Shown here: piece after piece, positions 38,738-64,000 of the stretch
How positions within the stretch are numbered: the stretch's first letter is position 1
Layout: every line of letters begins with the position of its first letter
Source: Escherichia phage AV125
Sequence record: OR352955.1
Strand: one strand, 5' to 3'
DNA length: 64,000 bases
The notes under the pieces: model-generated
Told to the model about the DNA's origin: nothing
The model's database searches: none
What the model saw: only the letters and a program-made list of their open reading frames with translations
Position numbers and translations under genes: made by a program

Positions 38738-38766
38738 GAGGATACAGCAATGGTTTAGGAGTGGTT

Positions 38767-39438
38767 ATGAAAAAGTTTGTTGTTTACAGTCGTCTTTCTA
38801 AACAGAAAAAAGGTGAGGCACAATATGGTATGGAGAGCCAAGAGAACGATATCCGTTACTTCTTAGACTCTGTGCCTGATGCGGAAGTTATTGGTCAATT
38901 TTCTGAATACTATTCGGGTAAGGGCGATTGGAAGCAACGTAAGGAACTGGTTAAAGCGGTTGAAATGTGTAAAGCTACCGGAGCAACTTTATTGGTAGCT
39001 AAAGTTGACCGCTTGGGTCGTAACAACGCCTCCGTAGCAACTCTTCTAGAAATGATCGATGTTAAGATAGCCATCATGCCAGACGCAGATAAAATGGTTA
39101 TACAGCTTCTGTCTGTTCTGGCTGAACAAGAAGTTAGAGGTATTGCTGATCGTATTAAAAAGGGTCTTGCTGTAGCAAAAAGCAAAGGTGTTTTATTAGG
39201 CAGTGCTAATCCTAAAACTGCCGCTGCACGTAGAAAAGGAAAAATGGAATACAACTCTGTTAAAGCAGACGCTTTTGCAGAGACATTCCGTGAACGTTTG
39301 GAGATCCTTAGAGATTTAAATACACCTTACAAAACTATTGCTGAAAAATTCAATAGTAAGAAAATAGCAACAGCACGTGGTGGTAAATGGGATGCTAAAA
39401 CTGTTTCTCGTTTGTGTGCCAGACTGAACATTAAATAG
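38767..39438 (+). CDS. serine recombinase (resolvase/invertase family)
   Basis: 223 aa; N-terminal VVYSRLSKQKK (catalytic Ser context), LLVAKVDRLGRN and QLLSVLAEQEVRGIADRIKKGLAVAKSKGVLLG match resolvase catalytic-domain motifs as remembered. Confidence 0.7.
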   Translation: MKKFVVYSRLSKQKKGEAQYGMESQENDIRYFLDSVPDAEVIGQFSEYYSGKGDWKQRKELVKAVEMCKATGATLLVAKVDRLGRNNASVATLLEMIDVKIAIMPDADKMVIQLLSVLAEQEVRGIADRIKKGLAVAKSKGVLLGSANPKTAAARRKGKMEYNSVKADAFAETFRERLEILRDLNTPYKTIAEKFNSKKIATARGGKWDAKTVSRLCARLNIK

Positions 39439-46268: not shown

Positions 46269-47084
46269 TTATTTGTTTAAGTGGTCTTCGACCATTTTAA
46301 TGAAACCTTCATTGCTGAAGGCTGTTGCAGCTTTTTCTCGGTAAACAAAAACTCCACGATCTTCATAGAGAAGTGTTTCTTCGTAATTAACTCCAGGGTT
46401 AACTACAACCATTTTTGTACCCATACTAAGTGCAGGAAATAATTCCCAATTAAAATTGATAACTTGGTTTGAACATCCTACTACTACAACCAAATCTTGC
46501 ATGGTCAAAGTATCGAACAAGTGAGCCATATCTGCATACAAAGGTGCAGCCTCACCAAAAAATACAACATTAGGCTTCACCCAGTTATAATCATCTATGT
46601 TTATACTATTGTAACCAATATCTACCAGTGTTTTGTAATCTCCAGGATGCATACGGTAAACTACTTCAGGAAGATATCCGTGTACGTGAATAACAGAATC
46701 TCTGTCTACACCTGCTCGCTCTAGCAGATCATCAACGTTTGTTGTCAAGTTTACTATTTGGTTAGGATATTCCTTAAACCACTTTGCTATTTGAATATGT
46801 GCAGCATTAGGTTGTACATCTTTAAGCTCAACACGTCTTTTGTTATAAAATTCGTGTGTTTTGGCATACAAATCCATACCGTTCTCGTCTACACCACCGA
46901 CCACTGGAAGATCTGGAGATGTTCTAACACGATAACCTGCTTGGAAAGCTCCAATATCGCAGACCTCTTCTAAATCATATTCTTCCCATAAAGCACGACC
47001 ACTATCTGTGTCTGTTCTAAATGTTCGAATCCCACTGTCTGCACTTAAACCTGCACCGCTTACAAAAATCACTCGTCTTGGCAT
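46269..47084 (-). CDS. Sir2-like (sirtuin family) NAD-dependent protein
   Basis: 271 aa; N-terminal FVSGAGLSADSGIRTFR, central HG, FFGE match the sirtuin NAD-binding signature as remembered. Confidence 0.7.
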   Translation of the reverse strand: MPRRVIFVSGAGLSADSGIRTFRTDTDSGRALWEEYDLEEVCDIGAFQAGYRVRTSPDLPVVGGVDENGMDLYAKTHEFYNKRRVELKDVQPNAAHIQIAKWFKEYPNQIVNLTTNVDDLLERAGVDRDSVIHVHGYLPEVVYRMHPGDYKTLVDIGYNSINIDDYNWVKPNVVFFGEAAPLYADMAHLFDTLTMQDLVVVVGCSNQVINFNWELFPALSMGTKMVVVNPGVNYEETLLYEDRGVFVYREKAATAFSNEGFIKMVEDHLNK

Positions 47085-47612: not shown

Positions 47613-48266
47613 CTATACCAGACTTTGTAGGTATTTGTCAAGGGCTTCTTGATCGCCTTGACAAACATAGCAACGGAAGTCTTGAGCCGAAGGTTGTTTA
47701 TTTTCATCCCAGTCCCAATAAACATTACCCTTATAACGTGAACCAGGAAACTCAAAAGAGGCTGTATGTGTAATGTATCCTGGGCCACCAGTGAAATCAC
47801 AGAATGAGAATTGGGGGTATGCCGCCTTTACTGCCTCAATAAACCAAGCTTTACGATCTAAAGCTTCATTGATGCTATACGCATGTCTCTCCATTTCTTC
47901 CCACGTTTTCCAGACACTTCTCTCATCAGGAGAAAAGACAAGCCATTCTGGAAGGTATAGAGTGTCATAGTAATCATCATATTCGATCTCGGAGGCGCAC
48001 GAAGCTGACTCCTCCAGTTTTGAGTAATCAAAAGCAGAATATACCCACCAACCATCTTCCAGTAACGCTTTGATAGGGACGAAGCCTTTATCAGCATATT
48101 GATCGAATTGTTTGACACGGTGGCTTGTGCAGTCTTCAAACTCACATTCTAAACGATATGCACCTTTTCGACGAGCCTCAAGACCGTGTGTACTGAAAAT
48201 AACAACACTTCCTTCACCATCATTACGATCTACTTGATAAGCAACCACTGGTTTTGAATTTGACAT
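47613..48266 (-). CDS. hypothetical protein (217 aa)
   Basis: ORF track; no motif recognised. Confidence 0.6.
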   Translation of the reverse strand: MSNSKPVVAYQVDRNDGEGSVVIFSTHGLEARRKGAYRLECEFEDCTSHRVKQFDQYADKGFVPIKALLEDGWWVYSAFDYSKLEESASCASEIEYDDYYDTLYLPEWLVFSPDERSVWKTWEEMERHAYSINEALDRKAWFIEAVKAAYPQFSFCDFTGGPGYITHTASFEFPGSRYKGNVYWDWDENKQPSAQDFRCYVCQGDQEALDKYLQSLV

Positions 48267-48949
48267 TATTTCTCCTTATCTAGAAGATTGTTAGACAAAA
48301 ACACTGCACGAGCAAAACCACGTGCGGTTAGTGATCTAAGTTGTTTTGTTTTTGCACTAGCTCCACCTAAGCTTTTCCAACCCCAGAAGCAGCCTATATG
48401 ATCTACTGGTTTCTTCACTGGTTGAACAAAACCATTGCCGTGCCAAATACAAGTTTTCTTTGTATACCCATCACGGGTAGGCATTTTAGGATGAAAGCTT
48501 CCTTCCTCTTCAAACAAATACCCACCATACTCATAAGGATCAAAGTAAAAATCGGGTTTACGCCATAAGGTTGAAAGTTTACCTACTGGGTTCTCAATCA
48601 TCCAAGGAACATTATATTTGTTACCCAAAGCTTCCACTACACGAATATTAGCTAAAGCTTCATCCAATTCCTCTGTGCTGCGTTCGTGTTTGCTACCACT
48701 ACCTGCTAACATAGTGCAAGGTGGAAATCCAAAAATAATATCGGGTTTAGGTATCCCATGATCTTCAGGGTTGAATGTAGAATCTATCCAGGTATTCACA
48801 TAGGTTATGTTTGGGTGCTCCATCCTAACCTCGTATTTACCGTGATCCCCTTCATCAGCGTTTACACAAAAACACTTGTGACCTGCTTCGGCATAACGTA
48901 ACACCATGATCCCAGATCCGTCAAACATAGACAAAACTGTTTTACTCAT
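48266..48949 (-). CDS. small DNA (cytosine-5)-methyltransferase-like protein
   Basis: Start ATG 48949; motif I SMFDGSG, motif IV FGFPPC, motif VI MIENPVG; short (227 aa), target-recognition region not evident. Confidence 0.55.
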   Translation of the reverse strand: MSKTVLSMFDGSGIMVLRYAEAGHKCFCVNADEGDHGKYEVRMEHPNITYVNTWIDSTFNPEDHGIPKPDIIFGFPPCTMLAGSGSKHERSTEELDEALANIRVVEALGNKYNVPWMIENPVGKLSTLWRKPDFYFDPYEYGGYLFEEEGSFHPKMPTRDGYTKKTCIWHGNGFVQPVKKPVDHIGCFWGWKSLGGASAKTKQLRSLTARGFARAVFLSNNLLDKEK

Positions 48950-49337
48950 TACCCCTCCATTCAAGACAAGCCATAACTTTACGCCAATCACTTTCTGTAA
49001 GAAAAATCTCGTTTGCTTTCTTCCACAAATCTAAATCGTGAAGGGTTGGAATACGATATGTTAGTTCACAGAATCTATGCTCTTCTTCTGTAATATAACC
49101 AAAATGCAGAGCCACATCGTGAAACCAACACCAACCATGCATCTCTCGAACAACATGGTCATGCTGAGACATTGTTTTATGCCGTAAACCTAACCAACAA
49201 GGAACAGATATTTTAGTAGTCTTTAATCTGTGATCAACAGTATTAGAGTATTCAATAATAGCTGTCAGTTTCAATCGTGCTTTTTCTAAATCCTCATGGG
49301 TCACTTTGAAATAACTTTCTGAAAGATATCCACACAT
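48942..49337 (-). CDS. hypothetical protein (131 aa), Cys/His/Trp-rich
   Basis: Start ATG 49337 after AAGGAGG; track start 49355 would overlap upstream gene. Confidence 0.5.
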   Translation of the reverse strand: MCGYLSESYFKVTHEDLEKARLKLTAIIEYSNTVDHRLKTTKISVPCWLGLRHKTMSQHDHVVREMHGWCWFHDVALHFGYITEEEHRFCELTYRIPTLHDLDLWKKANEIFLTESDWRKVMACLEWRGNE

Positions 49338-54080: not shown

Positions 54081-54653
54081 TCAAATTATTAACGAAACCG
54101 CATGACTAAATCTTGGTTCAGATATAACCTCTGCTACAGTCACATATGTATCGTGCAGCCAAAAAGATTCTACTCTACAAACACAAATACCGTTGATAAT
54201 GAAATCTACACAGGCTTTATTATTTTCGCACACTTGTTGACTATAAACAACCCCTAAAGAGTCATAAAGTGATCTCACTGTTGCTACCATTTCATCTGTT
54301 TCGTCTTCCTGTGAAACAAAGAAAACGAATACAGACAAGTTATTAGCGAAAGTATTGCTATTCTCTACTTCAACCGACTTACAAGGTAAAAAGGAGTAAT
54401 ATTTACCGTTAGGTATCAATTTCGCCTCAACCTGGTTAAGTATGCTTTGAGATGGTTTTGTTACATAAAAAAGATTTTCTGTTGGGTTTTCAACATTACT
54501 CCTTACTATGCAACGAGTGGGGTTCGAAGGATCAAAAACATGATCGAAATCGACACACACAGGTAAGTTAACAACTTTAAACTTTTTGCTAAGAATGCTT
54601 ACTGCTGTAAAAATCAAACCAGCATTTATTTTGCCAGTGAAAGTTGAACGCAT
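54081..54653 (-). CDS. hypothetical protein (190 aa)
   Basis: Start ATG 54653 after GAGGAG. Confidence 0.5.
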   Translation of the reverse strand: MRSTFTGKINAGLIFTAVSILSKKFKVVNLPVCVDFDHVFDPSNPTRCIVRSNVENPTENLFYVTKPSQSILNQVEAKLIPNGKYYSFLPCKSVEVENSNTFANNLSVFVFFVSQEDETDEMVATVRSLYDSLGVVYSQQVCENNKACVDFIINGICVCRVESFWLHDTYVTVAEVISEPRFSHAVSLII

Positions 54654-54667
54654 AACTACTCCTCGGA

Positions 54668-54862
54668 TCATTCTACCAAAGAGAATTCCGCCTCTTCCAG
54701 GTAGATTACAGACCTTGTTGCATGATATTTAACGCTCCAGAAATTACCTTCGCGCCGTAAAAGTATCTCATTCACATCAAGATTGCTTAGAAAAACCATA
54801 TAACTTAAAGCTTGTTGACGCGTTGAGAATTGTTTCTCTAAAAGTTCTTCTCCGCTCTGCAT
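54668..54862 (-). CDS. hypothetical protein (64 aa)
   Basis: ORF track; AAGGAGGG upstream. Confidence 0.45.
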   Translation of the reverse strand: MQSGEELLEKQFSTRQQALSYMVFLSNLDVNEILLRREGNFWSVKYHATRSVIYLEEAEFSLVE

Positions 54863-55359: not shown

Positions 55360-55869
55360 TTAAACAAAATAAAATGGTTGAGAGAGGCCCAAACGATTCT
55401 TTGGGTCGTATACATACCAAGCGTATGCTGTCTTATCTGTTCCACCTGCAACAAACGAAGGCCGTTCTGAAAGGACTATAAGGTTTGTTGGTGGATTCTT
55501 TTGATGGAACTCTCGTCGTTTCTTTGACTCCAAGAAGCCCAACCGAAGAAGATAAATACAAACATCTGCCTCTTTTAAGCTCTTTTCCAAGAACTCCATT
55601 GCTAACTTAAATGGAGGATTTGTGATTATAATGTCGGGACGATTTTCCCATTCATGACTAAAATAATCTTTACCTTCTTCAAGTTCGCAATATTCTGAAC
55701 CTTCAGGAAAATGGCGATAAATCGCTTCAGCTTCACCTCTGCAAGGTTCTGCAAAAACCCAACCTTCTTCCTTTAGATTTTTGAAATCTATAACACTAAA
55801 CAAACTATTGATTGCTTTTTGCGGTGTCGGATAATAATCGCTCGTTGGGCGATCATAATCTAATGCCAT
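55360..55869 (-). CDS. small DNA N6-adenine methyltransferase-like protein
   Basis: 169 aa; NPPF catalytic motif (IIITNPPFKLA); size fits short phage Dam-type proteins. Confidence 0.5.
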   Translation of the reverse strand: MALDYDRPTSDYYPTPQKAINSLFSVIDFKNLKEEGWVFAEPCRGEAEAIYRHFPEGSEYCELEEGKDYFSHEWENRPDIIITNPPFKLAMEFLEKSLKEADVCIYLLRLGFLESKKRREFHQKNPPTNLIVLSERPSFVAGGTDKTAYAWYVYDPKNRLGLSQPFYFV

Positions 55870-56311: not shown

Positions 56312-56327
56312 TGCCCCCGAAGGGGCA
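56312..56327 (-). terminator. intrinsic terminator
   Basis: TGCCCC-cgaa-GGGGCA downstream of 56333 stop. Confidence 0.5.
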
Positions 56328-56332
56328 GTTTG

Positions 56333-57025
56333 TTAAATAGCGGTTCCTTCGAAATCCGCCACATTTACGAGATTAATATTTTCAGATTTAGAAGTCAAGT
56401 TGTTTTCTGCAACAGATTTTTCTTCAGTATCCGCCTCGTTACCTGCCACGTTACGAGGTTCTTCTTCACCGTAGGGATTACCGAATTTCAAAAGATTGAT
56501 CAATTCTTCTTTGGAGAAGTTTTCTAAATCATCGTCTGTTAATTCAATAATCTCGTCTTGTTCTTCAATAAATGTTTCACCACCAGAAAAAGCATCTCGC
56601 TTTTTAGCTACTTCCATAGCTTGTTCTGGTGTTGCCCCTGCGTCAAGAGCAGCTAAAGCAAAGTCTGACCCACTTCCTACTGCATAATATTCTTCATCAA
56701 TCGGATATGCACGTGTTGGGTTGTTACCTTCGTGCAAGAAAATACGTCCGTCTGGATGAACAACAAGTGCAATAAACTCTTCATCTTCTTTATCTGGATC
56801 AGAGTGAATCATCAAACCAGGGACAGCATCACGTGCTGCTTCGCACTGTAGATTTTGTTCAAACCATTGAAAGAAAGAAAGCACGGAGGTCAGACGACCA
56901 GCACCACCTACAAGGTAATCTCCAATTTTTCGGACCTTTTTGAAATTAATAGAATCTACACGTCCACCAAAAGTTACCTTACCATCACTCAAAATCTTAT
57001 TTTTGGTTGCAATAATTGTCGTCAC
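56333..57025 (-). CDS. HslV-like Ntn-hydrolase peptidase with acidic C-terminal extension
   Basis: 230 aa, GTG start; N-terminal TTIIATKNK...GRVDSINFKKVRKIG..GGAGR and AVGSGSDFALAA parallel HslV as remembered. Confidence 0.65.
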   Translation of the reverse strand: MTTIIATKNKILSDGKVTFGGRVDSINFKKVRKIGDYLVGGAGRLTSVLSFFQWFEQNLQCEAARDAVPGLMIHSDPDKEDEEFIALVVHPDGRIFLHEGNNPTRAYPIDEEYYAVGSGSDFALAALDAGATPEQAMEVAKKRDAFSGGETFIEEQDEIIELTDDDLENFSKEELINLLKFGNPYGEEEPRNVAGNEADTEEKSVAENNLTSKSENINLVNVADFEGTAI

Positions 57026-57560: not shown

Positions 57561-58319
57561 TTAAATAAACACTTCAGTAATCAGTTTAGACAAACGTCCA
57601 CGTTTATTATCGTCCGTTGTCAGTTCAACGTATCCAATAAAATCTACAATTGGTTCACGAACACCTTCTTCATTTTCTGGATATAAAAGTTCCAAAATTT
57701 GATGCAGACCATTGCTACGTTTTTTAATTGCATATGTCTGGCGAACATCGCCTAATACAATAACATGCGTATTAATACCTGCACGTTCAATAAGAAGTTT
57801 AAGTGTTTCTGTTGACATAAGTTGTGCTTCGTCAATAATGACGATTGTATTATCCAGGGTAGCCCCCAACAAATAGTTAGGAATATTCAATTCGATCTTA
57901 CCTGATCCAATATCGTTTTCCAATTTGTTGGCTGTCATGAATTGCTGGAAAATACGTTTTGTAGATTCATAGTGTGCTGCTAGTTTATCTGTTTTATCCC
58001 CAGACAAGAAACCAATCTGGTCATCTCCGACTTCAGTAGGGTTCTTGATAAAAAGTAGTTTACGGAAGTCTCCTGAACGAAGCATCTGCAAAGCTTTCCA
58101 TAAAGCAACAGAGGTTTTACCAGTCCCTGCCGGAGCATTTACAACAGTCAGATCATTCCAGATCATGCTTTGAACAATCTTATTTTGGTCCCCTTCAGGC
58201 ATAAATTCATCTAAACGGTAATCGTCATTACCTACCGCTTTTGCTGCATAACGGCTTTCAATCTTTGCTGAATTAGCCAGTTTCTGCCGTTGTGTTTTAG
58301 CTGCGGTTTTATTTCCCAT
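57561..58319 (-). CDS. phoH: PhoH-like ATPase
   Basis: Start ATG 58319 after AAGGAG (track start 58370 overlaps lysozyme gene); Walker A NAPAGTGKTS, Walker B IIDEAQ. Confidence 0.8.
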   Translation of the reverse strand: MGNKTAAKTQRQKLANSAKIESRYAAKAVGNDDYRLDEFMPEGDQNKIVQSMIWNDLTVVNAPAGTGKTSVALWKALQMLRSGDFRKLLFIKNPTEVGDDQIGFLSGDKTDKLAAHYESTKRIFQQFMTANKLENDIGSGKIELNIPNYLLGATLDNTIVIIDEAQLMSTETLKLLIERAGINTHVIVLGDVRQTYAIKKRSNGLHQILELLYPENEEGVREPIVDFIGYVELTTDDNKRGRLSKLITEVFI

Positions 58320-58336
58320 AGTAGCACTCCTTTTAG

Positions 58337-58354
58337 AAGGGGCCGAAGCCCCTT
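58337..58354 (-). terminator. stem-loop between lysozyme and phoH (copy 2 of repeated hairpin)
   Basis: AAGGGGC-cgaa-GCCCCTT identical to 46244-46261. Confidence 0.45.
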
Positions 58355-58356
58355 TA

Positions 58357-58857
58357 TTAGTTGTAAGCATCTAAAGTTCCAGAAGTCAGAACTTTAATTA
58401 CTCGTTCAGCACGGTTTGGCGTCTGGCTATACCATCGGCTTTTACGCATGTTTTTACCTGCTTGAGTATAATATGCATTGCTGATTAAAGTCAAGCTATT
58501 TTGAAACCCTTCAGCACCTTTTAACCCCAACTGGAAAACCATGTTGATTATTCCCAATTTACGAGTATCACTCACCTTATCATAGATTGGTGATAAGATA
58601 GCACTGTTTTTTATGTCTCTCTTCACTTTTGCAACATCGTCAGCAAAGATTTGACGGGCTTCTTTTTCTGTGATAACTCCATTAGTCTTACGACCAAGAA
58701 GATTATCTAAGATTTGAATAGCCTTTGCTTTATCTTTTATTTTAGTCAGAAGGTGTCCTATGCCGACTGTCCAATAACCAAGATGGTCTTGATAAACAGT
58801 AAGCTTCAGTCCTTCATCGACTCGTAGCATATCAAACTCATCTACTACTTTAGCCAT
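58357..58857 (-). CDS. T4-type lysozyme (endolysin, glycoside hydrolase family 24)
   Basis: 166 aa; MLRVDEGLKLTVYQDHLGYWTVGIGHLL...NGVITEKEA...SRWYSQTPNRAERVIKVLTSGTLDAYN aligns along its length with T4 lysozyme as remembered. Confidence 0.9.
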   Translation of the reverse strand: MAKVVDEFDMLRVDEGLKLTVYQDHLGYWTVGIGHLLTKIKDKAKAIQILDNLLGRKTNGVITEKEARQIFADDVAKVKRDIKNSAILSPIYDKVSDTRKLGIINMVFQLGLKGAEGFQNSLTLISNAYYTQAGKNMRKSRWYSQTPNRAERVIKVLTSGTLDAYN

Positions 58858-58864
58858 TTACTTC

Positions 58865-59014
58865 CTATTCGTCGTCTCCTACTCCGTGATCCAACTCGTT
58901 AAACAACAGATGTTCTGGAGAAGTTTCACGTTTTGGTTTCGTTTTCTTTATGTTGGACTTCAGCTCATTTGCCAAAGCACGAGAAAAGATCTTACGTTTC
59001 TGTTTACTTTTCAT
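58865..59014 (-). CDS. small hypothetical protein (49 aa)
   Basis: Own translation MKSKQKRKIFSRALANELKSNIKKTKPKRETSPEHLLFNELDHGVGDDE. Confidence 0.3.
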   Translation of the reverse strand: MKSKQKRKIFSRALANELKSNIKKTKPKRETSPEHLLFNELDHGVGDDE

Positions 59015-59019
59015 AATTG

Positions 59020-59280
59020 TTACTCCGCAATTTGAGCCATGAGATCACGCAGTTCGGTAAAACCGCCTACGTATGTTACCTCCCCGTTCACTTCAGACAA
59101 AATTTGTGGAAATGTGCGTGGAGGAACTCCGGTAAGATCAACAACTGTTTTAGTCATTGATTCTAAATCGTAGTCTTGGTCAAGACTTAAATATTCAAAC
59201 TGTTTATTGCGCATGGTTAATAGTTGTTTTGACATTTCGCAAAATTGACAGTTAGGTTTACCAAAAATTACAAATTCCAT
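59020..59280 (-). CDS. glutaredoxin-like protein
   Basis: 86 aa; CQFC active site near N-terminus, PQI..G...GGF motif. Confidence 0.7.
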   Translation of the reverse strand: MEFVIFGKPNCQFCEMSKQLLTMRNKQFEYLSLDQDYDLESMTKTVVDLTGVPPRTFPQILSEVNGEVTYVGGFTELRDLMAQIAE

Positions 59281-60122
59281 TACCTCTCCTTATTAAGTAA
59301 TACTGCTAAAGACCGTTCAATACCTTTATTTAAATCTGATTTTGTAAGATAGTGACTGGTTACTAGTTGTGACTTCACCGGACGTGCTGCTGGAGCATTA
59401 TAGGTTGAAGCTGATACCGCCGATATCTTAACAGGTTCTGGCATCTGTGTCAAGATCTTTTCCGCAAACTCCGCCCAAGAAATAAGATGGCTTCCTGCAA
59501 AATGGTAAGTCTTTACAGATCTTGACCAACCTGTTTTTAATACTTCAAAAATAGCTTCTGCTAAATCTGGGGCATATGTTGGACAAGAGAACTGATCTGC
59601 AACGATAGTAAAATCACGTTGTCCATCATTATAGCGAGACAACATAGTTTTTAGAAAGTTATTTCCAAATTCACTATATACAGACGCTGTTCGAATAATA
59701 TATGCGTTCGGGTTAACTCCTCGCACCATTTTTTCACCGAGTTCTTTCGTATACCCATAATTGTTTATCGGGTTAGGTGTAGTATCTTCAAAAATAGGAT
59801 GAGAATAATTAAAAATATAGTCTGTAGAAATATGCACAAAATCAATTTTAAGTTTGCTGCACACTGCCGCAATATTTGCAGGGCCATAGGCATTAACAGC
59901 CAAAGCAGTAGCAAAATCATGTTCTGCTTTATCTACAGCCGTATAAGCAGCGCAATTAATAACACCATCTACATAATCTTCAATAATAGCGTTTCGCACA
60001 GCTTCAAAATTTGTAATATCTACACGTTCTTTAGGATAAATTAAAGACACATTTGAAGGAGCCACTTTACGTAAAGCTTGTCCCAGTTGTCCATTACCAC
60101 CCAATACCAGATATGTTAGCAT
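59280..60122 (-). CDS. rmlD: dTDP-4-dehydrorhamnose reductase
   Basis: 280 aa; N-terminal LVLGGNGQLGQAL, Rossmann GxxGxxG; fourth gene of rml cluster. Confidence 0.75.
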   Translation of the reverse strand: MLTYLVLGGNGQLGQALRKVAPSNVSLIYPKERVDITNFEAVRNAIIEDYVDGVINCAAYTAVDKAEHDFATALAVNAYGPANIAAVCSKLKIDFVHISTDYIFNYSHPIFEDTTPNPINNYGYTKELGEKMVRGVNPNAYIIRTASVYSEFGNNFLKTMLSRYNDGQRDFTIVADQFSCPTYAPDLAEAIFEVLKTGWSRSVKTYHFAGSHLISWAEFAEKILTQMPEPVKISAVSASTYNAPAARPVKSQLVTSHYLTKSDLNKGIERSLAVLLNKER

Positions 60123-60682
60123 ACACCCTCGCTACGTAACTGTTGAAAAGACTTAGCCATTGCATCTTTTGTTGATAAGATAGGTTTAAAATCTTCGTCA
60201 AAAATCATATCGAAGCCCCAATCAATCCCTATATCAGGATCATCCCAACGTAAACTTTGTTCGCTGGAAGGGTCGTATGGAGTTGTGCATTTGTATTCGA
60301 AGATAGCATCCATACTCAACACTATAAAACCATGTGCCAAACCAGGTGGAAGCCAGAACTGTGTATGGTGTCGTGCACGAAGAACAACACCGTCCCAAGC
60401 ACCGTAAGTAGGACTATCTTTACGTAGGTCTACAGCGAAATCCAATACTTCCCCACTTACACAACGAACAAGCTTACCTTGCGGATTATTTGTTTGAAAG
60501 TGCATTCCTCGCAAAACACCGAAGTTTGATTTAGACATGTTATCTTGAACGAAAGTTTGTCTACCAATGATATCTTCATATTTTTGTTCATTATATGTTT
60601 CTAAAAAGAAACCACGGTCATCTTTATAAACGTCTGGTTTGATAATTACCGCACCTTCAATTTTTGTTTTTTCTACTTTCAT
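60116..60682 (-). CDS. rmlC: dTDP-4-dehydrorhamnose 3,5-epimerase
   Basis: Start ATG 60682 after GGAGGGAAA (MKVEKTKIEGAVIIKPDVYKDDRGFFLETYN); FVQDNMSKSNFGVLRGMHFQ motif. Confidence 0.8.
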   Translation of the reverse strand: MKVEKTKIEGAVIIKPDVYKDDRGFFLETYNEQKYEDIIGRQTFVQDNMSKSNFGVLRGMHFQTNNPQGKLVRCVSGEVLDFAVDLRKDSPTYGAWDGVVLRARHHTQFWLPPGLAHGFIVLSMDAIFEYKCTTPYDPSSEQSLRWDDPDIGIDWGFDMIFDEDFKPILSTKDAMAKSFQQLRSEGVC

Positions 60683-60758
60683 TTTCCCTCCGCTAATTTG
60701 AGTAGGTATTGCCCGTACTCTGTTTTCTTCAGTGAGTTTCCATGGTAGACCAAAGTCT

Positions 60759-61556
60759 CTAAAGAAATCCACCCTTTTTGAAAGCAATTTCTTCCAGGCA
60801 CGCAATCTTCAATCCTTGACAGTTCTCAATAGTCTGCACGAATTGACCAGCTTCCATCAGACTGGCGTGTGTTCCTGTGTCAAGCCAAGTAAATCCTCGT
60901 CCGAGAACTTCTACTTGTAACTTCCTGTCTTCGAGGTAGCTGCGATTGATATCGGTGATCTCCAGTTCTCCACGCGCGGAAGGGGTTACTTCTAATGCAC
61001 GTTGAATAACAGAGTTATCATAGAAATATAAACCTGTGACAGCATAATCTGATTTAGGATTTTCAGGTTTCTCTTCAATAGAAATAACTTGACGATTACT
61101 CCCAAATTCAACCACACCGAATCGTTCAGGATCTTTCACCAAACACCCGAAGATACAAGCTCCGCCCCAAACATCTACCATCTCACTAGCGTTAATCAGT
61201 AGTTTACCAAAGCTTTGTCCGAAGAATAGGTTGTCACCTAAAATAAGAGCAACAGAGTCTTCTCCGATAAAATCTTTACCGATGATGAAAGCGTCCGCAA
61301 GACCTCGTGGCTCGGATTGGATTGCGTAAGTGAGTTTTATCCCAAACATAGACCCATCTCCAAGAAGATGCTCAAAGTCTTCCTGATCGCCTGGTGTGGT
61401 GATGATTAAGATATCCTTAATGTCAGCCAACATCAATACCGATAAGGGGTAGTAGATCATGGGTTTGTCATACACAGGGAGCAATTGCTTGCTCACACTG
61501 CGTGTTACCGGATGAAGGCGGGTTCCACTTCCTCCCGCCAAAATAATACCTTTCAT
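60759..61556 (-). CDS. rmlA: glucose-1-phosphate thymidylyltransferase
   Basis: 265 aa; [36 protein letters not shown]...GELEITD nearly collinear with E. coli RmlA as remembered. Confidence 0.9.
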
Positions 61557-61564
61557 AACCCTCC

Positions 61565-62557
61565 TTAAATCTTCTTACTCCACCATTGAGGGTTGTTTAA
61601 GTACCATTCAATCGTTGAGTAGAGATCTTGTTCAAATGTAGAGTTTGCACTCCAACCCAGTTCAGACTCTATTTTAGAAGGATTGATTTCATAACGCAAG
61701 TCATGTCCTTTACGATCTTCAACAAAAGTTATCAAGTTGGAAGAAGGGTAGGTTCCTGCTTCTGGATGTACAGCATCCATGTAGTCACAAACCATATAGA
61801 TGATCTCCATATTGGTTTTGGGATTACGTGTTCCAACATTATACGTTTGACCTGGTTCTCCACCTGTTGCCACTTGAAGAATAGCTCGCGCATGATCCTC
61901 AACAAAAAGCCAGTCTCGCACCTGATCGCCTTTACCATACACCGGAATCTCTTTATTCGTCAAGATACTTGTGATGATTTTTGGGATCAGCTTTTCTGGA
62001 TGTTGATAAGGTCCAAAGTTATTGGAGCAGTTGGTTATCACAACAGGTAAACCGTAGGTACGGTACCAAGCTTTCACAAGATGGTCAGATGCTGCCTTAG
62101 ACGCACTGTACGGGCTTGAAGGGGCATAAGCTGTCTCTTCGGTAAAGGGAACGCCAGAGTCTGCCATATCGCCGTACACTTCGTCTGTGGAGACATGTAC
62201 GAACATCTTAAGTTTATTTTTTGGGAGGAGCCTTGCAGCTTCCAATAAATTGTATGTACCAATAATATTGGAGTCGATGAAAACTCGTGGATTCTTGATA
62301 GAATTATCCACATGACTCTCTGCCGCTAAGTGAATGATGAAATCGGGATTGCACTCTACTACTAAACTTTTGACCTGGGTTTCGTTTGCCAAATCTGTTA
62401 TGCTTAGTTTAACGTGAGTGATATCGCCTACATTCTCAATATCTGCTGCATAGCCCATCTTATCAACGACAAAAACTTCGTTATTGGGATCTTGACAAAG
62501 AGAGCGCACCACGGCACTCCCAATAAAACCAAGACCACCTGTTACCAGATAGCGCAT
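61565..62557 (-). CDS. rmlB: dTDP-glucose 4,6-dehydratase
   Basis: 330 aa; [33 protein letters not shown] (YxxxK). Confidence 0.85.
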
Positions 62558-62566
62558 CAGTTCTCC

Positions 62567-62893
62567 TTACCAGACATGTTGAGAAATAATAGTTTCCGTT
62601 TTAATGTTATATTTTTCAAGTAGCTTTGCATAGGCTTCTTTTGCATTCTCATTCAATTGCTCAAGATCTACAGCTATGCTTCCTTCTCCGCCTTCTAAAT
62701 CAAGGCCATATATGCAATAAGACTCATCCGCATCGTAGAAAGGAGAGATGCGGCTTAAGTCAAGACCTTCTTGTAAGAACCAGTTAAAATCTCCGTCAAA
62801 TTCTTCTTCAATTCTAGGATCTTCTCCTACAGCCTCTTCCCACTTATTTAAAGGTGCACCCTGTAACATACGCCATTCGATATCAATACCCAT
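62567..62893 (-). CDS. hypothetical acidic protein (108 aa)
   Basis: ORF track. Confidence 0.5.
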   Translation of the reverse strand: MGIDIEWRMLQGAPLNKWEEAVGEDPRIEEEFDGDFNWFLQEGLDLSRISPFYDADESYCIYGLDLEGGEGSIAVDLEQLNENAKEAYAKLLEKYNIKTETIISQHVW

Positions 62894-63047
62894 TTTTCAT
62901 CTCCTCCTCTTCTTGAGCAGCTTTAATAATTGCTTCATAAATATCGTAAGCAATGCCTCCACAACATCTAGCTTCGAAAGCTATTGCTTCTGCAATGTGA
63001 TCTGTTAATTCTCGTGGAATGCGAACATACTCTTTTTCACTCTCCAT
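62883..63047 (-). CDS. small hypothetical protein (54 aa)
   Basis: Own translation MESEKEYVRIPRELTDHIAEAIAFEARCCGGIAYDIYEAIIKAAQEEEEMKNGY after GGAGG. Confidence 0.35.
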   Translation of the reverse strand: MESEKEYVRIPRELTDHIAEAIAFEARCCGGIAYDIYEAIIKAAQEEEEMKNGY

Positions 63048-63189
63048 CTTCTACCTCCAACCCTTCTTTTTCAAAGACTACTACTCGTCCCTCACCATGA
63101 CAATTCAGGCAAGGAAATGTTACCATAATTTCCACTTCCATCTGTCCCGTCCCACCGCACACAGGACAAAAAATAAGTTTTTCAGCCAC
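63037..63189 (-). CDS. small zinc-ribbon protein (50 aa, GTG start)
   Basis: Own translation (V)AEKLIFCPVCGGTGQMEVEIMVTFPCLNCHGEGRVVVFEKEGLEVEDGE after GGAGGAATA; CxxC...CxxC. Confidence 0.35.
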   Translation of the reverse strand: MAEKLIFCPVCGGTGQMEVEIMVTFPCLNCHGEGRVVVFEKEGLEVEDGE

Positions 63190-63398
63190 TATTCCTCCTT
63201 AATTATTTCAAATTTGGCAACACCATTTACAATAATATGACCACAAGACATAACTCCTAGCCAAGGATCGCCGTTTTTCTTCAGGCGTTTACCGAATACA
63301 TCACAAAAACCATTCTTCATTTCAGAGGCTTCATAAGAAACCCCTTTATCAAAAACGTCTTTGAATGTGTCGATTATACCAACACATTTCAAAATCAT
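63189..63398 (-). CDS. hypothetical protein (69 aa)
   Basis: ORF track; stop overlaps downstream start. Confidence 0.45.
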   Translation of the reverse strand: MILKCVGIIDTFKDVFDKGVSYEASEMKNGFCDVFGKRLKKNGDPWLGVMSCGHIIVNGVAKFEIIKEE

Positions 63399-64000
63399 TC
63401 GAAGTCAAGCTCCTCATCATCAGAGAGATCTTTGTTAGCTGAATTCAATTTGTAGTTAGTTAACTGAATCTCTTGGGCTGCTGACTGAATCAAATCAGGA
63501 TTCAACCATTTTTCCATCCAAGCTAAAGGGCTATGTTTAGGTGCTTTAAACTTGGCTTTCATTTTCAATCGACGATAAATAGGAGCAGCATTGAAATAAA
63601 CCCACTGTTTAGACAATTCGGCGTTAAGACCTACAATAAAACGACCTTCACTAAACAGGTAGTCACACCACTGTTCCTCTTGTTCAACAACAGTGTCAAG
63701 AATCAAAGTCAACTCTTCAATGTTGTCTTCGTAAATTTTACGCCAAATTGGGTCATGCATCAATGCATCAATTACAGCATAATCCATCTTAACATGCAAG
63801 ATTTCATCTAGCATAATTTTCTGGATCAGTTTACAAGCTCCAACAAACAGTTGTTGTTCTGCCATAGCAAAAGTAGCAGAGAAGGAGGATATAAACTGAA
63901 TACCTTCTAACCCAATCAGGGCTACCATCCCTTTAAGAATCAGCAGTCGAAGTTCATCGTTAGCTTCAATCAATCCTAGAGCATACTTATGACCAGCTTC
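63395..64000 (-). CDS. nrdB: ribonucleotide reductase small subunit (class I RNR beta), C-terminal part; gene continues beyond window end
   Basis: Frame open to 64000 (track start 63973 is an internal TTG); LEGIQFISSFSATFAMAE...DYLFSEGRFIVGLN...NYKLNS...DDEELDFE parallels NrdB C-terminal half as remembered. Confidence 0.75.
   Translation of the reverse strand, partial: EAGHKYALGLIEANDELRLLILKGMVALIGLEGIQFISSFSATFAMAEQQLFVGACKLIQKIMLDEILHVKMDYAVIDALMHDPIWRKIYEDNIEELTLILDTVVEQEEQWCDYLFSEGRFIVGLNAELSKQWVYFNAAPIYRRLKMKAKFKAPKHSPLAWMEKWLNPDLIQSAAQEIQLTNYKLNSANKDLSDDEELDFE

Follow-up and report, generated by a model that had tools for sequence, protein, structure and literature searches.

A dTDP-L-rhamnose cassette with a frameshifted rmlA in a phAPEC8-like Escherichia phage

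Introduction

What do lytic coliphages do with activated rhamnose? The question is raised by a stretch of 64,000 nucleotides from Escherichia phage AV125 (sequence record OR352955.1; hereafter the window), in which the open-reading-frame (ORF) list places four contiguous ORFs, rmlB-rmlA-rmlC-rmlD, on the minus strand at 59280-62557. An earlier note on this DNA read them as a complete operon coupled to the genes for glutaredoxin and NrdB, by which the phage makes its own activated rhamnose, and proposed modified DNA bases, glycosylated virion proteins or remodelled host surface polysaccharide as the product.

The window belongs to a Phapecoctavirus (a phAPEC8-like E. coli myophage of the Stephanstirmvirinae), and the region is 99.9% identical to that of vB_EcoM_Schickermooser (hereafter Schickermooser). 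The finding is already known and ordinary: the cassette has previously been described in phAPEC8-like E. coli phages and is annotated in more than 100 GenBank phage records. Our search of the literature on phage rml function returned only two mentions, both speculative. Olsen et al. (2020; PMC7552041) discussed the cassette and proposed rhamnosylation of hydroxymethylated bases in DNA, and Maffei et al. (2021; PMC8594841) described Vequintavirinae and their relatives, including phi92-like phages, as 'exceptionally susceptible' to restriction-modification (RM) systems 'despite a putative dTDP glycosylation machinery'.

Layout of the locus

The features of the region are as follows.

59020..59280, minus strand: glutaredoxin gene (grx), 86 aa; Pfam PF00462
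59280..60122, minus strand: rmlD, dTDP-4-dehydrorhamnose reductase, 280 aa, intact
60116..60682, minus strand: rmlC, dTDP-4-dehydrorhamnose 3,5-epimerase, 188 aa, intact
60679..60774, minus strand: orphaned 3' end of rmlA, out of frame; would encode 31 residues, ending in an ATGA overlap with rmlC
60759..61556, minus strand: rmlA, glucose-1-phosphate thymidylyltransferase, shortened ORF, 265 aa versus 292
60775..60779, minus strand: frameshift site, an A5 run (mRNA sense) versus A6 in relatives
61565..62557, minus strand: rmlB, dTDP-glucose 4,6-dehydratase, 330 aa, intact
62567..63398, minus strand: four small conserved ORFs between nrdB and rmlB (108, 54, 50 and 69 aa)
63395..64000, minus strand: 3' part of nrdB (class Ia ribonucleotide reductase beta subunit); Pfam PF00268, profile positions 145-278

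The four rml genes run head to tail, and the tight junctions described earlier are borne out by measurement: rmlB and rmlA are separated by 8 nt, rmlC and rmlD overlap by 7 nt, and the rmlD stop overlaps grx by 1 nt. No convincing internal promoter or terminator was found in the cassette, which belongs, together with nrdB, grx, lysozyme and phoH, to one long unit on the minus strand. The ORF list extends rmlC upstream to a TTG, reaching 60805; the start is the ATG at 60682, which has a GGAGGG Shine-Dalgarno sequence and agrees with the annotation of relatives. Glutaredoxin does adjoin rmlD as the earlier note held, but nrdB does not flank the cassette directly, as the four small ORFs lie in between. 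These match PHROGs 15453, 20683, 8027 and 4448, none of which has an assigned function, and are conserved in phi92, 'cardinal' and a Klebsiella-phage relative regardless of rml content. The window end cuts nrdB, leaving only its 3' part inside; the Schickermooser nrdB at the matching position is 1089 bp.

The supposed coupling of rml to grx and nrdB reflects the site of insertion. In the Vequintavirus DrSchubert nrdA, nrdB and grx are adjacent without rml genes, grx following nrdB directly as expected of a class Ia ribonucleotide reductase module, and grx homologues adjoin nrd genes in many phages. In the window the rml cassette and the small ORFs intervene, and phi92 has the same layout. The gene order suggests that grx belongs functionally with nrdAB, whose reductant its product would be. 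Since the cassette sits where the sister subfamily has nrdB and then grx, it appears to have been inserted into the ribonucleotide reductase module, and we have dropped the idea that rml is functionally tied to glutaredoxin or NrdB in favour of this interpretation.

Identity of the enzymes

All four products score above the NCBIfam equivalog cut-offs for their families: 430 bits for RmlB (TIGR01181, cut-off 365), 428 for RmlA (TIGR01207, 361; profile positions 1-258 of 286 only), 224 for RmlC (TIGR01221, 156) and, by a narrow margin, 239 for RmlD (TIGR01214, 224). The E-values, 1e-67 to 1e-129, are far beyond chance. RmlB aligns over its full length with S. enterica RmlB (1g1a; 374 bits) and keeps the Thr-Asp-Glu and Tyr-x-x-x-Lys motifs of the extended SDR family as T133-D134-E135 (STDEVYG) and Y167xxxK171 (PYSASK), in 1g1a numbering; extended SDRs of this family also have a GxxGxxG NAD site. 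In the alignment of RmlC with S. enterica RmlC (1dzr) the equivalents of the cupin residues H63, K73, Y133 and D170 are identical. RmlD aligns with B. anthracis RmlD (3sc6) and contains the SDR motifs GGNGQLG (GxxGxxG), STDY and YGYTK (YxxxK).

The translation of rmlA holds the core motifs GGSGTRL (GGxGTRL), the KQ loop, LGDN, EKP and WLDTG. It falls short of a full-length enzyme of about 290 aa with the C-terminal helices and the YGQYL motif, while the intact 292-aa RmlA of Schickermooser can be aligned with 4ho0 over its whole length (416 bits). The pathway in the window therefore consists of intact rmlB, rmlC and rmlD and a truncated rmlA; the description of the operon as complete holds for the presence of four Rml orthologues but is not strictly accurate for rmlA, which is frameshifted.

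The scores and conserved catalytic motifs indicate that the four genes are true RmlB, RmlA, RmlC and RmlD orthologues, as the earlier note had assigned them. The matches to the profiles and to solved RmlA-D structures also support its suggestion that the phage can make its own dTDP-L-rhamnose. Enzymes of these families convert glucose 1-phosphate and dTTP to dTDP-glucose and then, through dTDP-4-keto-6-deoxyglucose and dTDP-4-keto-rhamnose, to dTDP-L-rhamnose.

Comparison with related cassettes

The cassettes of phAPEC8, Schickermooser and other Phapecoctavirus members share with the window the order small ORFs, rmlB-A-C-D, grx, a small ORF, lysozyme and phoH, the annotation of the same four enzymes and 97.6-99.9% nucleotide identity over 59000-63000; they differ in that the 1-nt deletion in rmlA is found in the window alone. 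Outside this region the window reaches only about 90-98% identity with any record, which marks it as a distinct mosaic isolate. The phi92-like phages (Justusliebigvirus) have an identical layout from nrdB to grx and also carry the same glycosyltransferase cluster (see below), but their Rml proteins are 54-72% identical to those of the window, and in one member, 'cardinal', the cassette has collapsed to an rmlB'-'rmlD fusion by a deletion of about 2.4 kb, with loss of the pathway.

The bacterial rmlBDAC (rfb) loci of E. coli and Salmonella O-antigen clusters comprise the same four enzyme families, all catalytic residues being kept in the phage proteins. The gene order in E. coli K-12 is B-D-A-C, whereas that in the phage is B-A-C-D, and the phage cassette has no adjacent gene for a rhamnosyltransferase, flippase or polymerase. 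Among 185,579 species genomes the closest bacterial RmlD proteins are 36-44% identical to that of the phage and come mostly from Bacteroidota, not Enterobacteriaceae, which rules out recent capture from the E. coli host. Given this distance and the 54-72% identity to the phi92 proteins, the cassette is an old phage lineage.

The dN/dS values against phAPEC8 are 0.106 for rmlB, 0.098 for rmlA, 0.011 for rmlC and 0.062 for rmlD; a value for rmlD against phiWec181 was left out as unreliable, equal-length sequences having been compared without realignment. Such values show purifying selection, which supports a function for the cassette in the lineage. Inactive or absent genes in close relatives, which the earlier note had named as counting against its reading, were found in part: besides 'cardinal', rmlD of P3322 is split by a frameshift and Klebsiella-phage relatives keep only rmlCD. 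The cassette is dispensable, though under purifying selection.

Glycosyltransferases

A glycosyltransferase was sought among the 32 ORFs of the window with 160 aa or more and not found, in agreement with the earlier note. In close relatives, which we used for the rest of the genome, four consecutive glycosyltransferase genes were found about 18 kb outside the window and about 70 kb from the rml cassette. Their products, encoded by Schickermooser genes 00190-00193, match PHROG glycosyltransferase families with E-values of 1e-79 to 1e-149; two are GT-B and two GT-A-like, and no transmembrane segments were found in them. Of the AF2 models, one has a GT-B fold (pLDDT 94.7) and one a GT-A fold (pLDDT 87). 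The GT-B model matches GT4-type enzymes such as PglA, PimB', MshA and BshA, and the GT-A model comes closest to the viral GT-A protein STIV A197. GT-B enzymes of the GT4 type are as a rule retaining, with alpha-linked UDP- or GDP-sugars as donors; few take dTDP-beta-L-rhamnose.

RmlD and the GT-B protein each occur in 106 Escherichia-phage records, from Phapecoctavirus and phi92-like phages (grx occurs in 151, including Vequintavirus). This co-presence is confined to one subfamily and explicable by shared ancestry, and a link between the two loci is unproven; 'cardinal' retains the glycosyltransferase cluster with the rml pathway deleted. Temperate prophages of Enterobacter, Serratia and Pseudomonas carry a three-gene module of syntenic homologues of 00193 (41-44% identity), 00192 (37-43%) and 00191 (43-51%). 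This module differs in lying between the lysis genes and terminase of siphophage-like prophages, and in all three prophage contexts it has no RmlA, RmlC or RmlD nearby, the one related gene being an NDP-hexose 4,6-dehydratase-like SDR in the Enterobacter prophage. Likewise, RmlA, RmlC or RmlD was found within 10 kb of the GT-B gene in 0 of 78 IMG/VR contigs, and an RmlB-like dehydratase in one. Guilt by association outside the subfamily is thus negative.

Proposed use of the rhamnose

In our view the best explanation overall, to which we give about even credence, is that this is a conserved rmlB-A-C-D cassette of the Stephanstirmvirinae making dTDP-L-rhamnose for phage glycosyltransferases with an acceptor other than DNA. 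RmlC and RmlD would carry out the committed steps, which are probably what the phage needs, and would pull the host pool of dTDP-4-keto-6-deoxyglucose towards dTDP-L-rhamnose, while RmlA and RmlB would raise the supply. As a best guess, at least one of the four soluble glycosyltransferases encoded elsewhere in the genome uses the rhamnose. The acceptor is expected to be an envelope precursor or a protein, of the virion or of the host, and not DNA, because relatives of the phage are sensitive to restriction (PMC8594841).

A more specific proposal is possible but distinctly tentative: the cassette may feed all four as dedicated enzymes that together build a rhamnose-containing glycan on proteins of the virion, or on a base that makes up a minority of the DNA and would be missed by RM assays. 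If true, this would be phage self-glycosylation of a kind so far undescribed for E. coli phages, and the same glycosyltransferase module would act in many temperate phages with host-supplied sugars.

Rather unlikely, in our judgement, is that the cassette serves to manipulate the host envelope or metabolism. Host dTDP-4-keto-6-deoxyglucose, a precursor of enterobacterial common antigen (ECA) and many O antigens, would be diverted to dTDP-rhamnose, or rhamnose would be supplied for changes to LPS, O antigen or ECA during infection. The phage glycosyltransferases might or might not take part, and the outcome might be that receptors are masked, superinfecting phages are excluded or fewer progeny are trapped on debris. 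The Klebsiella-phage relatives with rmlC and rmlD only, which need the host-made intermediate, fit this reading, as do the several fibre and depolymerase genes by which the phages considered here target surface glycans, one encoding a colanic-acid-degrading protein. The predicted resemblance of the GT-B model to GT4 enzymes whose acceptors at the membrane are lipid-linked or small also points this way. Against these stand the absence of any flippase, Gtr-type or membrane-embedded component near the rml or glycosyltransferase locus and the position of the prophage module, which lies in the lytic/late region and not where lysogenic-conversion genes are placed.

The rmlA frameshift

The deletion of a single nucleotide shifts the rmlA frame after Lys261, so that translation stops at 60759-60761, the last ~30 residues are removed and the ATGA overlap with rmlC is lost. 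The additional base is present in 47 of 47 related records. Restoring one A gives a 292-aa protein with no amino-acid difference from Schickermooser RmlA, the gene having one synonymous difference. YGQYL, a motif that is conserved in Aneurinibacillus RmlA as well, lies in the orphaned segment.

We infer that the deletion is either an error of sequencing in a homopolymer or a recent mutation that the phage tolerates. It would be tolerable because enterobacterial hosts supply dTDP-glucose through RfbA/RffH and because rmlA and rmlB are missing altogether from the Klebsiella-phage relatives. Should the frameshift be real and the shortened RmlA inactive, the phage would not encode the full pathway.

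That the pathway is decaying in this genome, through a real loss of rmlA function in an accessory cassette not needed on the isolation host, seems unlikely to us. The deletion is unique to the window. Alignment with Schickermooser over 12,962 bases shows no other gap, which means that indels are not a general problem of the assembly; an error-prone assembly, though conceivable as the cause, is not supported. Relatives show independent disruptions, namely the 'cardinal' fusion and that of P3322, whose rmlD lesion is a 1-nt deletion in an A6 run. Both single-base lesions, however, sit in A6 homopolymers, a classic site of sequencing error, and the orphaned 3' end has no further change from Schickermooser; rmlB, rmlC and rmlD are intact, and the rml genes of the window differ from those of Schickermooser by three synonymous changes only. 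Even a real lesion could be bridged: that host RfbA/RffH can replace RmlA is established E. coli biochemistry, and C-AAA-AAG (mRNA sense) is a lysine motif prone to slippage in E. coli, at which a low level of -1 frameshifting would restore the exact wild-type protein.

DNA modification as a possible alternative

Hypermodification of DNA, in which dTDP-L-rhamnose would be transferred to a modified base as in the glucosyl-hmC of T4 and host nucleases evaded, is improbable and the least supported of the options in the earlier note, of which it was the first (see also Olsen et al., 2020; PMC7552041). As in T4, with its hmC synthesis and alpha- and beta-glucosyltransferases, a capacity for sugar transfer is found among nucleotide-metabolism and replication genes: the cassette lies among the former and the glycosyltransferase cluster adjoins primase/helicase and DNA polymerase genes. 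The prophage homologues lie just upstream of HNH/terminase genes. Gene 00192 has a weak partial match to Pfam TAGT (E 1.3e-3, 36 residues) and another to the beta-glucosyl-HMC-alpha-glucosyltransferase PHROG (E 5e-6, 40 residues), but these matches, to TAGT and PHROG-842, span only the generic nucleotide-sugar-binding N-terminus.

Other findings count against this reading. No dCMP/dUMP hydroxymethylase or TET/JBP is annotated at 11507-151194 of Schickermooser or was found in the large ORFs of the window, a ThyX-like gene being all that was seen, so that there is no sign of a hydroxyl to serve as acceptor. As donor, a dTDP-6-deoxyhexose takes the place that UDP-glucose has in T4. T4 DNA glucosyltransferase is absent from the 50 fold matches listed for the GT-B model, and both predicted models resemble other proteins best; the fold search gave no specific similarity to DNA glucosyltransferases, and the HMM matches to them are weak and partial. 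The relatives found highly susceptible to RM include phi92-like phages with the same cassette (PMC8594841). Judged by its genes, the phage does not appear to combine a hydroxymethylase or oxidase with a DNA glycosyltransferase and restriction-resistant DNA as T4 does.

Conclusions

As stated, the finding adds little to an oddity that has twice been noted in print. The question of what the rhamnose is for can draw on natural experiments: 'cardinal' with its pathway deleted, the relatives with rmlCD only, and the cluster of four glycosyltransferase genes at a separate site. Both Phapecoctavirus and phi92-like phages are commonly considered for therapy, and a glycan carried by the virion, the DNA or the infected cell could influence recognition by the immune system, host range or the evasion of defences.

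Identity and provenance of the rhamnose genes

Four consecutive minus-strand open reading frames (ORFs) span 59280–62557, at the coordinates reported in the earlier note. Using the curated NCBIfam equivalog cut-offs as the criterion for Rml assignment, we find that all four products score above threshold, which bears out the claim of four contiguous rml genes on this strand.

Scores of the four products against the NCBIfam equivalog cut-offs
RmlB, minus strand, 430 bits (cut-off 365)
RmlA, minus strand, 428 bits (cut-off 361)
RmlC, minus strand, 224 bits (cut-off 156)
RmlD, minus strand, 239 bits (cut-off 224)

The phage proteins align over their full length with solved Rml enzymes and retain the catalytic residues. 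These include T-D-E and YxxxK in RmlB (as in 1g1a), the GGSGTRL core in RmlA (as in 4ho0), His63, Lys73, Tyr133 and Asp170 of 1dzr in RmlC, and STDY and YxxxK in RmlD (as in 3sc6). In our view the RmlB, RmlA, RmlC and RmlD assignments, made from sequence, are secure. The cassette was already known: the four genes are so annotated in phAPEC8 (2012), in Escherichia phage vB_EcoM_Schickermooser (Schickermooser) and in dozens of further records, and have been discussed in print. Olsen et al. (2020; PMC7552041) described their presence as 'peculiar' and suggested rhamnosylation of hydroxymethylated nucleotides. Maffei et al. (2021; PMC8594841) found Vequintavirinae and relatives, phi92-like phages among them, to be 'exceptionally susceptible' to RM systems 'despite a putative dTDP glycosylation machinery'. 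No functional study of phage rml genes was found in the literature searched.

The window comes from a Phapecoctavirus genome (a phAPEC8-like E. coli myophage of the subfamily Stephanstirmvirinae). Region 59000–63000 is 99.9% identical to Schickermooser and 97–99% identical to some 60 further records. The best record match for the first 25 kb is gapped, at about 96–98%, and the lack of a close match there indicates that the source of the window is a distinct mosaic isolate. We also note two other features of the window. A 225-amino-acid serine recombinase/DNA invertase-like ORF (phrog_125; 38761–39438, plus strand), the phi92 homologue of which is annotated as a DNA invertase, occurs in what is apparently a strictly lytic myophage. 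Two paralogous minus-strand ORFs of about 190 amino acids (2219–2773 and 54081–54671) match phrog_4806, labelled 'histidyl tRNA synthetase', but are far too short to be a synthetase.

Frameshift in rmlA

The pathway had been described as complete. All four genes are indeed present, but rmlA is not intact. The window has A5 at 60775–60779 (mRNA sense), compared with A6 in Schickermooser; the frame shifts after ...EEIAFKK and three wrong residues precede a stop at 60759–60761. The resulting RmlA has 265 residues rather than the expected 292, its HMM match ends at profile position 258 of 286, and the ATGA overlap between rmlA and rmlC is lost owing to the frameshift. Of the related phage records with a match to this stretch of 101 nt, 47 of 47 have the extra base, and the site is the sole gap in 12,962 bases aligned to Schickermooser. 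The orphaned 3' end is otherwise unaltered, and adding one A yields a protein with no amino-acid differences from Schickermooser RmlA. The lesion may be a sequencing error in the homopolymer or a mutation of recent origin. A lesion of the same kind is seen in phage P3322 (PV191315; L091:481-1322), in which a 1-nt deletion (A6 to A5) splits rmlD into two CDS.

Organization of the locus

The following features share the neighbourhood or the long minus-strand block of the cassette.

46269–47084, minus strand, SIR2-like deacetylase gene
56333–57025, minus strand, HslV-like protease subunit gene
57561–58370, minus strand, PhoH-like ATPase gene
62567–63398, four small ORFs between nrdB and rmlB, conserved and without known function

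The cassette had been described as flanked by, and coupled to, nrdB and a glutaredoxin gene (grx). The latter does adjoin rmlD, which it overlaps by 1 nt, but nrdB, of which only the 3' part lies inside the window, is separated from rmlB by the four small ORFs. The Vequintavirus DrSchubert, from the sister subfamily, has the order nrdA-nrdB-grx and lacks rml genes, and grx homologues adjoin nrd genes in many other phages. These gene orders are most simply read as an insertion of the rml cassette into a ribonucleotide-reductase module to which grx belongs, and we regard the proposed coupling as positional. A consensus scan of the coding strand revealed no convincing promoter or terminator within the cassette, and in relatives terminators are annotated only ahead of nrdB and far downstream, so that the rml genes are probably co-transcribed.

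A perfect GC-rich hairpin, TGCCCC-TTCG-GGGGCA, is found at 56312–56327 (both strands); it is terminator-like in either direction and is the first such site downstream of rml, grx, lysozyme, phoH and hslV. A 50-amino-acid ORF (63037–63189, minus strand) carries two CxxCxGxG motifs resembling a DnaJ zinc finger and is kept between nrdB and rmlB in every relative examined.

Conservation and loss of the cassette

The layout recurs in the Justusliebigvirus phi92, the proteins of which are 54–72% identical, which indicates that the cassette is old in this lineage of phages. The nearest bacterial RmlD proteins (185,579 species, one genome each) are only 36–44% identical and are mostly from Bacteroidota. 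The dN/dS values against phAPEC8 are low (rmlB, 0.106; rmlA, 0.098; rmlC, 0.011; rmlD, 0.062), indicative of purifying selection on all four genes.

The earlier note held that loss of the genes from close relatives would speak against its reading, and such loss is found in part. The Justusliebigvirus cardinal (PQ567651) has a single 302-residue ORF at the rml locus (L085:5001-5909), residues 1–129 of which are 97.7% identical to phi92 RmlB and which continues as RmlD from a shared ISTD motif. It is the product of an in-frame recombination through which the remainder of rmlB, the entire rmlA and rmlC genes and the beginning of rmlD have been lost. The GenBank label of this fusion is simply reductase. 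Klebsiella phage phi1_175008 (PP357458) lacks rmlA and rmlB and has only rmlD and, directly upstream, an unannotated rmlC (L086:4450-4995), the product of which shares 60–77% identity with RmlC of the window and of phi92. Such a set needs host-made dTDP-4-keto-6-deoxyglucose, which suggests that the committed steps, RmlC and RmlD, are what matters and that RmlA and RmlB merely boost supply. E. coli RfbA and RffH are able to stand in for RmlA and, by the same logic, a broken rmlA in the window would probably be buffered by these host enzymes. The pathway is not essential for phage isolation. At the level of sequence comparison, the four genes are shown to encode enzymes of dTDP-L-rhamnose synthesis, to be selected for and to be accessory.

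Glycosyltransferases of the related phages

None of the 32 window ORFs of at least 160 residues is a glycosyltransferase (GT). In Schickermooser, a GT cluster lies about 18 kb before the start of the window on the circular map.

Schickermooser record 103701–106845 (L002:48202-49146, L003:654-2846), four consecutive genes, 00190–00193, beside a primase/helicase gene

All four products fall in PHROG glycosyltransferase families (E values of 1e-79 to 1e-149), with weak Pfam matches, and are predicted to comprise two paralogous GT-B and two GT-A-like enzymes. The AlphaFold model of 00191 (pLDDT 94.7) has a GT-B fold, and the solved structures closest to it are of GT4 type (sucrose-phosphate synthase, BshA, MshA, PglA, SdgB and Gtf3). 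The 00192 model (pLDDT 87) shows a small GT-A fold that carries a DDD motif; the protein nearest to it is A197, from the archaeal virus STIV. No transmembrane segments were found in any of the four, which are predicted to be soluble. Elsewhere in Schickermooser, outside the window (L003:4170-14055), is a Ter-type set (TerD, vWA-TerF-like, TelA and TerC, with a PRTase and a HAD phosphatase), an auxiliary gene set that is unusual for a lytic phage.

RmlD was detected in 106 Escherichia-phage records and the GT-B likewise in 106, with Phapecoctavirus, phi92-like and phiWec181-like phages represented, against 151 for grx, Vequintavirus included. The bacterial 'homologues' of 00191 sit in prophages. 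In Enterobacter and Serratia, homologues of 00193, 00192 and 00191 occur in synteny between lysis genes and HNH/terminase, and in Pseudomonas those of 00192 and 00191 lie just upstream of terminase. None of these prophages has rml genes; an NDP-hexose 4,6-dehydratase-like SDR in the Enterobacter prophage scores 180 bits, below the RmlB cut-off. RmlA, RmlC or RmlD was found within 10 kb of the GT-B in 0 of 78 IMG/VR contigs, and cardinal keeps the GTs with the rml pathway gone. These gene contents indicate that the GT genes form a self-contained module that is widespread among phages. In Stephanstirmvirinae the module may be paired with rml for a functional reason, or the two may simply be inherited together.

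Candidate acceptors

With moderate to low confidence, we infer that dTDP-L-rhamnose would serve as the donor for the phage glycosyltransferases and that the acceptor would not be DNA, but a protein or an envelope precursor. Manipulation of the envelope or of precursor pools is a viable alternative, for which the main support comes from relatives that keep only rmlC and rmlD. Rhamnosylation of DNA, a form of the option listed first in the earlier note, is the weakest option, since relatives are restriction-sensitive (Maffei et al., 2021; PMC8594841), no route to an acceptor base is apparent in the annotation of Schickermooser 11507–151194 or among the large ORFs of the window, and the modelled GT folds are unlike those of the T4 enzymes. 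We note that minus-strand ORFs at 48266–48991 and 55360–55869 match PHROG families labelled DNA methyltransferase (phrog_757 and phrog_799, respectively) and that relatives have a further N6-adenine methylase next to the gene for DNA polymerase, despite their reported sensitivity to RM systems.

The identity of the rhamnose acceptor gives the rml cassette a modest residual interest.
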